5,071 nucleotides of DNA from positions 1-5,071 of IMG/VR virus record IMGVR_UViG_3300045988_001025. One strand, given 5' to 3'. A model generated the notes under the pieces. It worked only from the letters and a program-made list of their open reading frames with translations, was not told where the DNA came from and did not search any database. This document shows positions 2,898 to 5,071 of the stretch, one piece after another (within the stretch, counting starts at the first letter, position 1; every line of letters begins with the position of its first letter). The translations under genes were made by a program, and so were the position numbers. The DNA is from a virus.

Positions 2898-3584
2898 ATG
2901 TCATGGCTCTCAGATACATTAGGTAGTGTTGCTGGTTCTGTTCTTGGATCAGCAGTTCAATATCATTACAATTCCGCTAATGCCGCACAGGCTAACGCGT
3001 GGAATGTCGAAAATTATAAACATCGTTATCAATGGGCTGTAGAAGATATGCGCAATGCTGGTCTGAACCCTATTCTTGCTGCAACCAATGGTATAGGCGG
3101 TTCTATAGCTGGAGCTTCAGCTGCTTCCGTAGGTATGAGTGATATCGGTTCTACTATGAACTCTGCTAGATCCGCTAGTGCCGCTGAACGCCAGGCCAAG
3201 AATGCCGAGCATCTTGCCGGTTCTCAAATTGATAAAAACGCCGCAGAAGCCGATTCTATGCGCCAGAGAACCCATGGTATAGTCCTTGAGAATGGTATTC
3301 TCGCGAATGATTTGAATCTTCGTGAGCAAACTTATGAACAACGTCTTGGTTATGAGCTTCAGCGCATGGATCAGGAACTGGAGAACTTAAGACTCCAAGG
3401 ATCTTATCTCTCTTCAGGCATACTTTCCAACATAGCTTCAGCTAATCAGTCTAATTCTGCCGCGAGTTTCGCGTCCCAAAATGCTCGTCTCTCGAAGCAG
3501 GAAGCTGATTTCTATGATTCGTTAGGCGTTGGCAATTCAGGTCTTGGTCATATTCTTCGCGGTATTGGTTATCTTTTTAAGTAA
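2898..3584 (+). CDS. VP2: Minor capsid / DNA pilot protein VP2.
   Basis: This 228-aa ORF starts 14 nt after VP1, with AAGGAG (2884-2889) 8 nt before the ATG. It has a Gly/Ser/Ala-rich N-terminus followed by YQWAVEDMRNAGLNPILAA, which matches the Y.RAV.DM..AGLNP.LA signature I associate with gokushovirus VP2. A heptad-like central region (LREQTYEQRLGYELQRMDQELENLRLQ) follows. Confidence 0.85.
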   Translation: MSWLSDTLGSVAGSVLGSAVQYHYNSANAAQANAWNVENYKHRYQWAVEDMRNAGLNPILAATNGIGGSIAGASAASVGMSDIGSTMNSARSASAAERQAKNAEHLAGSQIDKNAAEADSMRQRTHGIVLENGILANDLNLREQTYEQRLGYELQRMDQELENLRLQGSYLSSGILSNIASANQSNSAASFASQNARLSKQEADFYDSLGVGNSGLGHILRGIGYLFK

Positions 3585-3600
3585 AGGAGTGTTATAAAAT

Positions 3601-3840
3601 ATGTCCAACAAAACTACTATGATATTAACCTTCATTGTTACCGTCGTTGTTCCCTTCATTCAAGAAGTTGTGGATTTAATTGAAGCTCTGAAAGGTAAAG
3701 CTTCTTCGAACACTGTCACCGCTAAAAAAGTTGCTTCGGACTTTCAAACCGATGTTGCGCAACTTGTTGAGCCAGTTGGTAATACGAGTTCTTCTAAAAA
3801 AACTAGCCGTTTTTTCGGTTCTTGGAGGGACGCTAAATGA
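3601..3840 (+). CDS. Hypothetical small protein with one N-terminal hydrophobic (transmembrane-like) helix and a hydrophilic tail.
   Basis: The ORF is 79 aa. AAGGAG (3584-3589) overlaps the VP2 stop and lies 11 nt before the ATG. Residues 7-20, MILTFIVTVVVPFI, are uncharged and hydrophobic with an internal Pro18, and the rest is polar. About 35/79 codons end in T by hand count, like the confirmed genes. Its stop overlaps the next start (ATGA at 3837-3840). I recognise no homology. Confidence 0.65.
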   Translation: MSNKTTMILTFIVTVVVPFIQEVVDLIEALKGKASSNTVTAKKVASDFQTDVAQLVEPVGNTSSSKKTSRFFGSWRDAK

Positions 3841-3947
3841 GACGTCGAAAATTGTCTAAGCGTGGTTCTCGTCGTCTTTTCCGGCGTACTTCCAGATCCC
3901 GCCGTAAAAATTTCAAGAGAGTAGGACGAGGTGGATTTAGGATTTGA
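3837..3947 (+). CDS. 36-aa arginine-rich DNA-binding/condensing protein, analogous to phiX174 J and gokushovirus ORF8/VP8. It is absent from the supplied ORF track.
   Basis: ATG 3837 overlaps the upstream TGA (ATGA), and GGAGG (3824-3828) lies 8 nt upstream. The translation is MRRRKLSKRGSRRLFRRTSRSRRKNFKRVGRGGFRI, with 14 Arg and 4 Lys of 36 residues, no acidic residue, and a short hydrophobic/aromatic C-terminus as in J. It sits between VP2 and VP4, where the small basic ORF lies in gokushoviruses. Confidence 0.7.
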   Translation: MRRRKLSKRGSRRLFRRTSRSRRKNFKRVGRGGFRI

Positions 3948-3972
3948 CATCCTGACTTAATCCTGATACAAT
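3944..3972 (+). promoter_or_regulatory. Sigma70-type promoter upstream of the replication gene VP4.
   Basis: TTGACA (3944-3949, perfect -35) is followed by a 17-nt spacer whose last three bases are TGA (3964-3966, extended -10 TGn), then TACAAT (3967-3972, 5/6 match). The -35 overlaps the stop codon of the basic ORF. The predicted start near 3979 is the first base of the VP4 SD AGGTGA. Confidence 0.6.
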
Positions 3973-3989
3973 CGGTACAGGTGATTAAT

Positions 3990-4901
3990 ATGGTATGTTA
4001 CAATCCTATACTCATGTACCCAGTCGAAGGAGCGACTACGAAAAATGGAAAACAACATTATAGTTTCTACGGTAGCCTTGCCGCTCACCCTGAGCTTGCT
4101 GGCGATAACCGTTTCATTCGTTGTTCTTGTAAGCAATGTATTGGATGTCGGCTCGAAAACTCTCGTCAATGGGCTGTTAGAGCTGTTCACGAAGCCCGTT
4201 CTTCGTCTTCTGCGTTTTTCGTCACTTGTACTTTTGACGATTATCATTTGCCTGCCGATCATAGCTTAAGCAAGAAATTTCATCAGACTTTCATGAAAAA
4301 TCTTCGTCGTGAGTATGGCAGTGGTATTCGCTTTCTTGGCTGTGGTGAATATGGTGATCTTCATGGTCGTCCCCATTATCATTACATATTGTTTAATATT
4401 GATTTTAGCGACAAAGTTTTTCGGTTCCGTACAGATGGTTATAATACTTATACTTCTTCTCGCTTCGCCACGATATGGAAATACGGTATGCATCTCATTG
4501 GTGATTTTAGCTTCGATTCTGCTGCCTATGTCGCGCGCTATATAGTAAAAAAGCAGACAGGTAAAGATGCTCCTTCTCACTATAATGGTCGCATTCCTGA
4601 ATTCATGGTTGCTTCTAATCGTCCCGGCATAGGTGCTAAATGGCTTGAAGAGCATGGTGAAGAGTGTTATGCTAACGATTATGTTGTTATCAACGGTAAG
4701 AAGATGCGTCCTCCTCGTTATTACGATAAGAAATTCGATGAAACGCATCCTCACTGGATGGAGTATATTCGTAACAACCGTATTGAGAAGATGCTTCATA
4801 ATCTGGAGAACAATACTTTTGAGCGTTTGGTTGACCGTTGCCGTGTTCAGGAAGGTAAGTATAAACATTTTCTTGGTAGAAAACTTGACAAGGTGTTGTG
4901 A
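3990..4901 (+). CDS. VP4: Replication initiation protein VP4, an HUH rolling-circle endonuclease of the phiX174 gpA superfamily.
   Basis: Motif I is FFVTCTF (4215-4235). Motif II (HUH) is HGRPHYHYILF, with H-Y-H at 4374-4382. Motif III is YVARYIVKK (4527-4553), with two Tyr spaced Y-x3-Y as in gpA. I prefer ATG 3990 (MVCYNP..., AGGTGA 3979-3984 5 nt upstream) over the track's GTG 3981, which lies inside that SD. Confidence 0.95.
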   Translation: MVCYNPILMYPVEGATTKNGKQHYSFYGSLAAHPELAGDNRFIRCSCKQCIGCRLENSRQWAVRAVHEARSSSSAFFVTCTFDDYHLPADHSLSKKFHQTFMKNLRREYGSGIRFLGCGEYGDLHGRPHYHYILFNIDFSDKVFRFRTDGYNTYTSSRFATIWKYGMHLIGDFSFDSAAYVARYIVKKQTGKDAPSHYNGRIPEFMVASNRPGIGAKWLEEHGEECYANDYVVINGKKMRPPRYYDKKFDETHPHWMEYIRNNRIEKMLHNLENNTFERLVDRCRVQEGKYKHFLGRKLDKVL

Positions 4902-4913
4902 TTGTGTTATCAT
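4885..4913 (+). promoter_or_regulatory. Sigma70-type promoter overlapping the 3' end of VP4 and reading into the junction ORF / VP5 region.
   Basis: TTGACA (4885-4890, perfect -35) is followed by a 17-nt spacer ending in TGT (4905-4907, extended -10), then TATCAT (4908-4913, 5/6 match). This is the same architecture as the promoter at 3944. The predicted start near 4920 lies just upstream of GAGGTG-ATG at 4926-4934. Confidence 0.6.
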
Positions 4914-4931: not shown

Positions 4932-5071
4932 ATGCTTATTAGTGAACTTGAAGCTGTTGAAAAGTTCTGTAGTAATCGTAATATTTTTTTTAATTATTCT
5001 TTTCGCGGAAGCAAATATGCTGCGTACCGCCTTAAACCTGATGATTCTAGAGTTATTCGCCTTGATAATGA
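4932..5071 (+). CDS. N-terminal part of the junction-spanning hypothetical ORF. It runs off the window end and continues at 1..189 on the closed circle.
   Basis: ATG 4932 is preceded by GAGGTG (4926-4931, zero spacing). An in-frame TAA lies at 4914-4916, so the ORF cannot start earlier than GTG 4929. The frame stays open to the window end and is in phase with 1..189. See the entry for 1..189. Confidence 0.4.
   Translation, partial: MLISELEAVEKFCSNRNIFFNYSFRGSKYAAYRLKPDDSRVIRLDN
4983..5071. repeat. Right copy of the 89-nt terminal redundancy (identical to 1..89).
   Basis: Same comparison as for 1..89. Confidence 0.95.

Follow-up and report, generated by a model that had tools for sequence, protein, structure and literature searches.

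The gene at positions 3601–3840 of the plus strand of the window (the whole 5,071-nt stretch of viral DNA analysed here), hereafter ORF79 (ATG to TGA, 79 aa), is a genuine gene that is tightly conserved and subject to purifying selection, with a pattern of variation that is far beyond chance. It is an accessory gene limited to one clade of mammalian-gut gokushoviruses, and its product is very probably a real membrane-anchored protein that would cross the membrane once, as judged from hydropathy and helix prediction. The best overall explanation of the locus, namely that ORF79 is an accessory membrane protein whose roles include lysis, carries a probability of roughly one in three; taken separately, the assignment as a lysis effector is tentative, and ORF79 may be viewed as a plausible candidate for this function, with a putative target. 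Additionally, the last third of the gene seems to hold a second, overlapping coding layer.

Genomic context, family and selection

ORF79 lies directly downstream of the gene for the VP2 DNA pilot protein (2898–3584, plus strand) and is followed, on the same strand, by the gene for a 36-aa Arg-rich DNA-binding protein of the VP8/J-like type (3837–3947), to which it is coupled via an ATGA overlap. The other ORFs of the genome are VP1–VP5, VP8 and one soluble 79-aa ORF. The Shine–Dalgarno (SD) sequence of ORF79, AAGGAG at 3584–3589 of the plus strand, is located 11 nt upstream of the ATG and overlaps the VP2 stop codon TAA (3582–3584), and GGAG or GGAGG is found 8–11 nt upstream of the start of the homologous gene in all relatives examined. 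The junction between the ORF79 stop and the VP8 start is ATGA in 86 of the 92 relatives and GTGA in four. The SD of VP8, GGAGG (3824–3828, plus strand), is embedded in the codons of W75 and R76, and this TGG AGG pair is confined to lineages whose ORF79 homologue has a stop that either overlaps with the VP8 start or directly adjoins it. The fraction of T in the third codon position (T3) is 0.44 in ORF79, compared with 0.34–0.52 in VP1–VP5 and VP8. The SD, the T3 bias and the translational coupling reported in the initial annotation of this DNA are thus all borne out. The strong SD combined with the coupling to structural genes suggests abundant expression of ORF79, which would be made from the late structural operon through a chain of coupled translation running from VP2 via ORF79 to VP8. 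A fusion of ORF79 to VP2 is ruled out: none is seen among the members of the family, and the ‘VP2’ annotation that extends over an ORF79 homologue is due to the 8-nt overlap between the end of VP2 and the start of the homologue that exists in some relatives.

Over its entire length, ORF79 matches the profile of PHROG 23638 (E = 6.2e-48; residues 1–79 on positions 1–79 of 79), a phage family annotated with ‘unknown function’. The family falls into 493–653 clusters at 90% identity and into 31 at 50%, and nearly all of its members are encoded on contigs of roughly 5 kb; one contig of 10.8 kb (L102) is an inverted assembly duplicate. No homologues were found outside the gokushovirus clade of ORF79, and a scan of 185,579 species genomes for hosts or prophages turned up nothing but one free phage contig of 5.5 kb, which had been binned with a Clostridiales MAG. 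The 84-aa sister clade is missing from IMG/VR, and its DNA was taken from GenBank and from assemblies; in the 90-aa clade, a separate mini-ORF adjoins the ORF79 homologue. Chp2, phiMH2K and two other gokushoviruses (L117 and L118) lack a stand-alone membrane ORF in the slot of ORF79, and in 4 of the 10 outgroup gokushoviruses this slot is occupied by a non-homologous small hydrophobic ORF. Because the family is restricted to one clade, ORF79 cannot be a general gokushovirus lysis gene.

Conserved presence and synteny, which had been proposed as a check on the gene, hold throughout the family: ORF79 is intact in all 92 relatives that were fetched, always between VP2 and VP8, and the same interval is occupied in 12 GenBank relatives and in the divergent members. 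In the alignment of the relatives, the variable sites are distributed over the three codon positions as 26/11/57, and the dN/dS ratio of 0.05–0.19 equals those of VP1 and VP4 and is below those of VP2 and VP5. The combination of a capsid-level dN/dS with 92 intact copies out of 92 argues for a near-essential function of ORF79.

Anatomy of the ORF79 protein

The hydrophobic core of the protein, as delineated by hydropathy scales, is M7–I20 (MILTFIVTVVVPFI; 3619–3660, plus strand), with Pro18 encoded at 3652–3654, and the probable transmembrane (TM) helix spans approximately T5–V24 (3613–3672). The segment is above the thresholds of the Kyte–Doolittle (KD), Wimley–White (WW) and Eisenberg scales (KD 2.07 for a 19-mer, WW octanol −6.2 kcal/mol, Eisenberg <H> 0.73), and AF2 predicts a confident helix over residues 1–30 (pLDDT 89–96). 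With a core of only 14 residues that is far less hydrophobic than that of the phiX174 lysis protein E, the TM segment has to be considered moderate or marginal. The stand-alone, membrane-type gene with a hydrophobic helix and an internal proline recognized in the initial annotation is retained across the family, where I8, F11 and P18 are invariant. The N-terminus lacks the n-h-c pattern of a Sec signal peptide: I20 is followed by QEVVDLIEALKGKA, and the first pair of small residues suitable for positions −3/−1, G32/A34, lies 14 residues past the h-region, where 3–7 residues are expected, which makes a signal-anchor more likely.

Downstream of the core follows an acidic amphipathic juxtamembrane helix, QEVVDLIEALK (E22, D25 and E28; 3661–3693, plus strand), that is nearly invariant in the family, as is the N-terminal block ILTF...PFIQE.VD.I as a whole; the middle of the protein differs in both sequence and length among the members. 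The N-terminal 31 residues are the best-conserved part of the family, which indicates that the membrane helix itself contacts a specific conserved partner, conceivably in the same way as the TM domain of E engages MraY. The C-terminal motif SRFFGSWRD (3805–3831, plus strand) contains the SRF triplet that is invariant in the full-length members and takes the form SRF(F/L) family-wide. The protein contains 10 K/R and 7 D/E residues, mostly past residue 21, and the basic residues noted earlier close to the C-terminus are indeed present (K66, K67, R70, R76 and K79). The protein would thus be laid out as a six-residue N-terminal tail (with K4), a short helix with Pro18, an acidic amphipathic helix, a variable linker and a basic/aromatic C-terminus with SRF(F/L), and the flanking charges are compatible with a predicted N-in/C-out topology.

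The profile and structure searches suggested in the initial annotation lead to no known protein, and NCBI-style names offer no lead either. There is no Pfam match at E ≤ 1; the best match in the PDB profile search (E = 0.16) is to designed repeat proteins, and the best match in the BFVD fold search has E = 5, with a ‘holin’ match (E = 6, probability 0.08) at the chance level. The sole PADLOC match, to a 4TM model (E = 0.005), is weak and compositional and is not common to the homologues. Among all ORFs of the genome, no peptidase, amidase, lysozyme or holin was detected with Pfam and PHROGs, and a PHROG scan of the +1-frame peptides described below, the mini-ORF, the junction ORF and the outgroup ORFs in the same slot gave nothing informative.

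The frozen 3′ third and the +1 reading frame

Synonymous variation is almost absent from the segment 3763–3835 of the plus strand, with pS of 0.03 compared with 0.30–0.33 upstream. The 12 windows with the lowest synonymous diversity, out of the 1349 15-codon windows genome-wide, all fall within 3763–3840 (Mann–Whitney p = 8e-9 for the low synonymous diversity of the segment). In the clade of the window, all three codon positions are frozen over 3763–3835, so that no frame is favoured, and the final 13 nt of the segment are accounted for by the VP8 SD. The initial annotation held that ORF79 is not overprinted on another gene and that selection therefore acts on it alone. The former statement is valid inasmuch as ORF79 overlaps no known gene, although a +1-frame ORF is apparently overprinted on its 3′ third; the latter has to be abandoned because synonymous constraint reaches its genome-wide maximum in this third, which also overlaps the +1 ORF kept in the clade of the window.

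This candidate overprinted gene consists of 35 codons (MLRNLLSQLVIRVLLKKLAVFSVLGGTLNETSKIV; 3752–3859, plus strand; LAVFSVLGGMLNETSSFI is an example of a peptide unique to the +1 frame) and extends into VP8, terminating 19 nt beyond the stop of ORF79. In the clade of the window, its ATG is kept in 86 of the 87 sequences, its length is always 35 codons, and D51 of ORF79 is always encoded by GAT, which keeps the +1 ATG; the ATG and the frame are kept also in two further relatives (L093 and L008). Stops interrupt the frame in three others (L095–L097) and across the 90-aa clade, in which there is no +1-frame coding signal, so that the +1 ORF is not family-wide. The chance of an open +1 frame of 35 codons in this genome is about 0.33. 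The pN/pS of the +1 frame in the clade of the window is 1.9, a value that derives from tiny counts, with too few substitutions. In the 84-aa sister clade, pN/pS over codons 45–62 is 1.86 in the main frame versus 0.32 in the +1 frame, and there is a shift in which codon position varies (Fisher p = 0.0035). The +1 peptide shows WW values of −2.6 to −3.4 and a KD of about 1.5, contains internal R/K residues and has no clear TM segment, and no SD is present upstream of its ATG. In L010 and L011, another, very hydrophobic +1 ORF of 32 aa covers the start of the gene; it contains stops in sister genomes and is rejected as an artefact of the T3 bias.

Within the frozen segment, an A7 run (K66, K67 and the first base of T68; 3796–3802, plus strand) is invariant in 83 sequences, with codons 66 and 67 represented by one codon type each, and a T6 run is invariant as well. 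Recurrent 85-aa fusion proteins (P0230, with 14 members, and P0231–P0234) join ...NDSKK to LAVFSVLGGMLNE... at the A7 run, and the +1 peptide makes up two GenBank proteins of 40 aa (P0226 and P0227) that come from Microviridae MAGs; the 85-aa fusions could be homopolymer sequencing errors. The junction of other 85-aa frameshift chimeras (P0199 and P0224) is an A6 run (K42–K43; 3724–3729, plus strand) that is not conserved: of 82 sequences, about 35 have A6 and about 45 have A5G. Programmed slippage at this run is unlikely in this clade given the presence of A5G in over half of the relatives.

Two alternative readings emerge from these patterns. In one, which appears unlikely, the lysis effector is the Leu-rich, basic +1 peptide, an E-like product overprinted de novo, and ORF79 itself has another role; the peptide would be expressed from its own ATG or within the 85-aa fusion, via slippage at the invariant A7 run. 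The synonymous suppression in the host frame, the retained ATG, the fixed length and the constant GAT codon all point in this direction, and so do the independent 84-aa clade, with its coding signature switched to the +1 frame, and the recurrent A7-junction fusions together with the 40-aa proteins. The T3 codon bias favours hydrophobic +1 frames, which is the accepted origin of E-like genes. These signs are to be weighed against the broken frame in L095–L097 and the 90-aa clade, the appreciable probability of an open frame by chance, the lack of a frame-specific signal in the clade of the window (where substitutions are few), the moderate hydrophobicity with internal R/K, the missing SD, the share of the VP8 SD in the frozen segment and the potential origin of the fusions from sequencing errors. 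The other alternative, possible albeit somewhat doubtful, is that 3763–3835 has a cis-acting nucleic-acid function in place of a second protein, for instance in controlling the translation of VP8, as a signal for replication or packaging, or as an A7 slippage cassette. This is consistent with the VP8 GGAGG inside the segment, the invariant A7 and T6 runs, the equal freezing of the three codon positions in the clade of the window and the limited spread of the +1 ORF. However, the RNA and DNA folds of the segment are neither stable nor unusual (z = −0.86 and +0.69), and there is no match to Rfam, promoters or terminators within it, so structure and Rfam families do not account for the constraint; the phiX-origin-like heptamer CAACTTG at 3760 is a chance occurrence, as neither sister genomes nor outgroups conserve it; and a DNA element would not produce the frame-specific pattern of the 84-aa clade. 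A combined version, in which the VP2–VP8 interval is a two-layer lysis cassette of ORF79 and the de novo overprinted +1 peptide (translated from its own ATG, through A7 slippage, or both), is improbable.

Function and comparison with known systems

Under the preferred reading, ORF79 would be directed at the cell envelope, where it would bring about host lysis or set its timing, as an analogue of the single-gene lysis proteins without homology to them; another small hydrophobic peptide, from the +1 frame of its own 3′ third, might act alongside it. No lysis gene is known for gokushoviruses (PMC7062461), and none is named in the literature examined, in agreement with the initial annotation. In other microviruses, acquired M15 peptidases are encoded between VP2 and VP4 (PMC3394797), and lysis-associated genes between VP1 and VP4 (PMC9239249). 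A lysis role for ORF79 is plausible given the peptidases in this slot and the hydrophobic helix with an invariant proline in a genome without a recognisable lytic enzyme. Against this role, the 14-residue core is far weaker than that of E, the ORF79 locus contains a rival hydrophobic coding layer, and in the 90-aa clade the separate mini-ORF lies beside the homologue. Furthermore, phiX174 E is weakly translated, unlike the abundant expression suggested for ORF79. Gokushovirus EC6098 has only six genes, yet lyses Escherichia coli (PMC7062461); EC6098, L117, L118, Chp2 and phiMH2K, all without ORF79, still must lyse, so that gokushovirus lysis need not require such a gene.

The latter observation (for EC6098, PMC7062461) is compatible with ORF79 being a non-lytic membrane accessory, i.e. 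a K-like modulator of burst size, a superinfection-exclusion factor that would block DNA entry, or an inner-membrane tether for replication or assembly, a proposal that is best regarded as rather unlikely. This proposal fits a gene that has a strong SD and is coupled to structural genes, the clade-restricted spread is typical of accessory or host-interaction genes, and the SRF(F/L) motif and the acidic helix suggest a specific protein contact, not necessarily with cell-wall enzymes. The near-essential function implied by the capsid-level dN/dS and the uniformly intact copies is difficult to reconcile with it, as phages can do without the known genes of the K and exclusion types, and apart from the single weak PADLOC match, ORF79 shows no homology to K, to Sie/Imm families or to PADLOC models. 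It is even harder to view ORF79 as a minor virion or DNA-delivery component working with VP2, for instance a helper that is packaged alongside VP2 and VP8 and inserts into membranes, an idea that seems highly doubtful. Such a role would agree with the flanking pilot and DNA-binding-protein genes, both coupled to ORF79, with the constraint at the structural-gene level and with the N-terminal TM domains that VP2-like pilots themselves carry (PMC3394797), but ORF79 is missing from most gokushoviruses, including the structurally studied ones, no VP2 fusion is seen, and there is no similarity to virion-protein families in PHROGs.

The only elucidated lysis mechanism among microviruses is that of phiX174 E (PMC3394797, PMC7062461). 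The locus offers two short, synthesisable candidates, the 79-aa membrane protein with its conserved helix and the 35-aa overprinted peptide. In guts and oceans, gokushoviruses rank with the ssDNA phages of highest abundance, and single-gene lysis proteins have repeatedly revealed points at which the synthesis of the cell wall is druggable (MraY, MurA and MurJ). If either candidate lyses cells, it would be a new ‘protein antibiotic’, possibly with a new target, and the repeated rise of E-like genes in T3-biased microvirus genomes would be shown; the two-layer cassette, if real, would comprise the first lysis genes identified in Gokushovirinae, and would mean that T3 bias has independently driven the birth of an E-type gene once more. 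If neither does, ORF79 still represents a gene that is constrained as tightly as the capsid gene, lacks annotation in hundreds of genomes from gut viromes and merits addition to microvirus annotation pipelines.

Among known systems, the M15 peptidase and amidase genes of other microviruses share the slot of ORF79 (VP2 or VP1 to VP4) and are thought to be lytic (PMC3394797, PMC9239249), but these are horizontally acquired enzymes, whereas ORF79 is a 79-aa non-enzymatic membrane protein. Holins resemble ORF79 in the small size, one TM-like helix and hydrophilic, charged C-terminus; in contrast, the genome with ORF79 lacks an endolysin partner, and ORF79 matches no holin family. The single-gene lysis proteins of ssRNA phages (LysM/Sgl-M and MS2 L) are likewise short, with a single TM or hydrophobic segment, but belong to another virus realm, are mostly overprinted and show no detectable similarity to ORF79. 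These proteins are evolutionarily labile, arise repeatedly and are non-homologous between clades, and their identified targets are enzymes of lipid II supply. Closer to home, phiMH2K orfN and phiX174 K are small hydrophobic microvirus proteins with an accessory or unassigned role. The GenBank record of phiMH2K describes orfN as ‘similar to phiX174 E and K’, the only earlier proposal of an E-like gokushovirus gene that was found; unlike ORF79, orfN is overprinted within Vp4, and hhalign detects no similarity between it and the ORF79 family. K is non-essential, whereas ORF79 is as constrained as a capsid gene.

The comparison with E of phiX174 (Bullavirinae), an MraY inhibitor that acts with SlyD, is the most extensive. 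The E-like architecture proposed in the initial annotation stands as far as the helix with its proline and the tail are concerned, but not in terms of homology (hhalign probability of 0.4% over 8 columns for the family profile) or strength of the segment (WW of −6.2 for ORF79 versus −17.3 kcal/mol for the TM domain of E). ORF79 differs from E also in being stand-alone with a strong SD, E being overprinted in the scaffolding gene; in the flanking charges, which suggest an N-in/C-out topology opposite to that of E; and in the acidic juxtamembrane helix and the SRF motif, which have no counterpart in E. Both are small microvirus proteins with a short N-terminal tail, one hydrophobic helix that is the best-conserved part of the protein and has a conserved proline inside it, and a hydrophilic tail with basic residues, and both genes end at the start of a gene for a J-type DNA-binding protein. 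The parallel extends to the second layer: the E gene occupies the +1 frame of D and stops immediately ahead of J, and the +1 ORF within ORF79 stops just inside the J-like VP8.

Conservation, membrane segment and genomic setting of ORF79

ORF79 (window positions 3601-3840, + strand) is, beyond reasonable doubt, a real gene, and it is important to the phage. It matches PHROG 23638, a family with no assigned function, end to end (E=6e-48) and is intact in all 92 fetched relatives, with an ATG start in all, a TGA stop in 90, and an overlap with the downstream gene VP8 that reads ATGA in 86 and GTGA in 4. In genomes that are ~87% identical at the DNA level, the protein retains 91-95% amino-acid identity (tblastn). 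Among 83 distinct nucleotide sequences, the variable sites are distributed 26/11/57 over the three codon positions, and the dN/dS against seven close relatives is 0.05-0.19 (Nei-Gojobori), compared with 0.05-0.13 for VP1, 0.06-0.12 for VP4, 0.15-0.34 for VP2 and 0.15-0.31 for VP5 by the same method. The features noticed in the initial annotation are all present: the ATG start, 79 codons, AAGGAG at 3584-3589, a third-position T fraction of 0.44 (0.34-0.52 in the core genes), the ATGA overlap of the stop with the VP8 start, a hydrophobic stretch (MILTFIVTVVVPFI) that includes Pro18, and basic residues near the C-terminus (K66, K67, R70, R76 and K79).

Databases already list the family, with no function given, as PHROG 23638 and as scattered ‘hypothetical protein’ entries; some GenBank records use that label for ORF79 and others leave it unannotated. 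A ‘VP2’ feature that covers ORF79 arises from an 8-nt overlap, and a fusion of the two genes was rejected. One source (JGI) names P0002, a database protein 95% identical to ORF79, ‘nucleoside diphosphate kinase’, a name almost certainly wrong for a 79-aa membrane protein.

At 90% identity, the family comprises 493 clusters in a single-sequence search and 653 in a profile search, nearly all on ~5 kb contigs, and when 1.84 billion representatives were searched exhaustively with a HMMER profile, only 31 clusters at 50% identity emerged, with no link to any larger family. The synteny is constant in every member with available DNA: VP2, the ORF79 homologue, a small basic ORF and VP4. Three residues, I8, F11 and P18, which at least 90% of a divergent sample and all of its full-length members share, sit in the N-terminal block MS.K(T).(M/I/A)IL(T/A)F..S...PFI(Q/R)(E/D).VD.I..L(K/R); the middle region varies in both sequence and length, and a C-terminal motif, (W/F/T)SRF(F/L/I), is conserved. 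Conservation in the family therefore peaks in the 31 membrane-proximal residues, the opposite of the pattern of a generic membrane anchor. Prophage status was rejected for two contigs: a 10.8 kb one (NCBI GCA_019971555.1) is an assembly artefact in which a phage genome is duplicated head to head in inverted orientation, and a 5.5 kb one is an entire free phage genome binned into a Clostridiales MAG.

The protein is very probably membrane-anchored. Its hydrophobic segment passes the customary cut-offs on three scales (2.07 for the Kyte-Doolittle 19-mer, -6.2 kcal/mol for Wimley-White octanol, 0.73 for Eisenberg <H>), with a wholly apolar core of just 14 residues. In an AlphaFold2 model from a 15-sequence alignment, the protein is a single long helix, confident only at residues 1-30 (pLDDT 89-96) and poor thereafter. 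The flanking charges (K4 on the N side; E22, D25 and E28 on the C side) would favour an N-in/C-out topology under the positive-inside rule, and no signal-peptidase site comes after the hydrophobic stretch.

The window is a complete circular gokushovirus genome with all genes on the + strand. Positions 1-89 and 4983-5071 form an exact 89-nt terminal direct repeat, an assembly overlap of the circle, which leaves a true length of 4,982 nt. ORF79 aside, the genes are VP5 (158-448, Phage_ORF5), VP3 (556-1038, scaffold), VP1 (1162-2883, Phage_F), VP2 (2898-3584, pilot protein), VP8 (3837-3947, an Arg-rich 36-aa J-like ORF) and VP4 (3981-4901, Rep), and strong GGAGG-type SDs precede every gene. Two near-consensus sigma-70-type promoters (TTGACA-17-TACAAT and TTGACA-17-TATCAT, both with TG, 11/12 positions matched in each) lie at 3944-3972, upstream of VP4 and inside a highly conserved block (3926-4000, pi 0.009-0.037), and at 4885-4913, upstream of VP5 and an ORF that spans the circular junction; together with the SDs, they presumably argue against a Bacteroidota host. 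The junction ORF (~79 aa; 4932-5071 continuing at 90-189 on the de-duplicated circle) lies between VP4 and VP5, overlaps the VP5 start and is masked by the linearisation of the window; it is conserved, non-hydrophobic, without a match in PHROG and unannotated in the GenBank relatives, and its homologue in the related record L093 is a called 94-aa gene (1994-2278). Between VP5 and VP3 (480-497), the hairpin CGGTCTCGAAAGAGATCG with a T-run after it resembles a terminator.

The nearest GenBank records are gokushoviruses of human, pig and dog gut (86-88% nucleotide identity). Only 12 of the 3,233 microvirus records encode a VP1 more than 60% identical to that of the window, the next nearest being at ~52%, which places the window in a distinct clade. 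The C-terminal ~35 codons of VP2 (3476-3580) can be aligned to only 8 of the 86 close relatives, so this end is a swapped or variable module, as in enterobacterial gokushoviruses, whose VP2 C-terminus is also reported to vary (PMC7062461).

The 3' third of ORF79 and its +1 frame

The initial annotation held that selection acts on ORF79 alone, which is contradicted by per-codon synonymous analysis. Codons 1-50 show ordinary third-position diversity (mean pi3 0.23, pS 0.30-0.33) with a nearly invariant protein; between roughly codon 55 and the stop, synonymous variation drops to a mean pi3 of 0.024 and a pS of 0.03 (Mann-Whitney p=8e-9). The 12 lowest of the 1,349 sliding 15-codon windows across all genes all fall within nt 3763-3840. 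This segment coincides with a 35-codon +1-frame ORF (3752-3859; MLRNLLSQLVIRVLLKKLAVFSVLGGTLNETSKIV), the length of which is the same in all sequences and the ATG of which is retained in 86 of the 87, because D51 is always GAT. RNA and DNA folding of the segment is unremarkable (z = -0.86 and +0.69), and the segment has no match to Rfam, a promoter or a terminator; a phiX-origin-like heptamer, CAACTTG at 3760, was dismissed as not conserved. The GGAGG ribosome-binding site of VP8 accounts for the last ~13 nt; it lies within TGG AGG (W-R) codons, which occur only in those lineages whose VP8 start overlaps or abuts the ORF79 stop.

The bias towards T at third codon positions falls on the second position in the +1 frame, so that open, hydrophobic +1 frames are expected throughout the genome. 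With a +1-frame stop frequency of 0.031 per codon, the probability of 35 open codons is ~0.33; openness alone is therefore no evidence, and independent subclades were examined. In 15 distinct sequences of an 84-aa pig-gut clade, codons 45-62 have a pN/pS of 1.86 in the main frame, with low pS, and 0.32 in the +1 frame, compared with 0.06-0.34 in the main frame elsewhere; the codon position that varies shifts (Fisher p=0.0035), and the conserved +1 peptide (...WLS.NK.LLQKLLGIILTL.M...) ends one codon before the VP8 ATG. Overprinting is well supported in this sister clade and consistent with the data from the window's clade, which are not frame-resolved. It is absent from a 90-aa clade, 8 distinct sequences of which give no +1 signal and have stops in the +1 frame, and from three genomes, L095-L097, in which the +1 frame is broken ahead of the stop of the main frame.

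Searching a large database with the +1 frame recovered 85-aa fusions of ORF79 with the +1 peptide, and also two 40-aa proteins, annotated in Microviridae MAGs in GenBank, that are made up of this peptide. The fusion junctions lie at the first A-run (K42-K43; 3724-3729) or at the A7 run at 3796-3802 (...NDSKK|LAVFSVLGGMLNE...), the latter in five clusters, one with 14 members; in proteins P0230-P0234, P0224 and P0199, the joining results from the loss of one nucleotide in the A7 or A6 run. The A7 run is invariant across 83/83 sequences. The fusions could be homopolymer sequencing errors, natural (phase) variants or traces of slippage. An identical A9 run (GAT TTA AAA AAA AAC; L095 ~475-492, L097 ~3640-3657) occurs in two divergent members of the family, exactly at the opening of an ATG-less +1 ORF ending ...LILKKL; the run is a candidate site of transcriptional slippage or frameshifting, which would join a Leu-rich tail to the TM domain.

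The 90-aa clade carries, between VP2 and the ORF79 homologue, a separate gene for a 33-37-aa hydrophobic single-TM peptide (L127 298-399, L131 294-398, L134 296-400 and L012 2526-2639; e.g. MRSFLINLLLASISLLILSWLFMTAIIFSRTGVI) with its own SD, GAGGTGA, and, in one pair, 3 nonsynonymous versus 9 synonymous changes (pN/pS ~0.11). These observations, three cases only, are suggestive of a small hydrophobic peptide gene that accompanies the ORF79 family in three clades, in differing genomic arrangements.

Lysis and alternative functions

The proposal that ORF79 is a lysis effector is reasonable but unproven, with a probability of roughly 0.3. In its favour, PHROG and Pfam searches of the ORFs detect no peptidase, amidase or holin in the genome, and the sole other non-core ORF encodes the soluble 79-aa protein across the circular junction. 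No gokushovirus lysis gene is reported in three studies, in which some microviruses acquired peptidases instead (PMC7062461, PMC9239249, PMC3394797), often between VP2 or VP1 and VP4 (PMC9239249, PMC3394797), the slot occupied by ORF79. A small hydrophobic ORF non-homologous to ORF79 is present in this slot in 4 of 10 distant gokushoviruses, which counts for lysis, and no such ORF is found there in the other 6, including Chp2 and phiMH2K, which counts against it. Furthermore, EC6098, with six genes, lyses E. coli (PMC7062461), so gokushovirus lysis need not rely on an ORF79-like gene.

Also against lysis are the weakness of the hydrophobic segment and the strong ribosome-binding site and coupling to the structural genes, which suggest abundant synthesis. 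A non-lytic membrane accessory, K-like or acting in exclusion or as an assembly tether, is a possibility to be held just as tentatively, and a role in the virion or in DNA delivery appears improbable. Within the same locus, the +1 peptide or its fusion with ORF79 is a rival, somewhat unlikely candidate for the lysis effector. The clade-restricted distribution of ORF79 limits the interest of the finding; nevertheless, with two short, synthesisable candidates, gokushovirus lysis becomes directly testable.

Comparison with known systems

ORF79 has no match in Pfam, nothing significant in a profile search of PDB (best E 0.16) or a fold search of BFVD (best E 5), and only a weak compositional match in PADLOC. 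Alignment of the family by hhalign gives probabilities of 0.4% with phiX174 E and 0.1% with phiMH2K orfN, so the likeness to E is architectural rather than evolutionary; membership in the E family was rejected on this failed homology test and because ORF79 is not overprinted, and a holin in the operational sense was rejected for want of an endolysin partner and a holin family match. The TM domain is the functional part of phiX174 E, and the conservation peak at the membrane-proximal end of the ORF79 family matches the pattern in E. The hydrophobic segment of ORF79 is far weaker than the TM domain of E (-6.2 versus -17.3 kcal/mol, Wimley-White octanol). In phiMH2K, a cultured Bdellovibrio gokushovirus, orfN (3997-4326), unrelated to ORF79 in sequence, is overprinted in Vp4, and the GenBank record describes it as ‘similar to bacteriophage phiX174 E and K proteins’, an earlier untested E-like proposal. 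Hidden E-like genes in gokushoviruses are therefore not a new idea, unlike the ORF79 locus and its evidence, which are new; should ORF79 be a lysis protein, it would add a new, non-homologous variant to the single-gene-lysis proteins.
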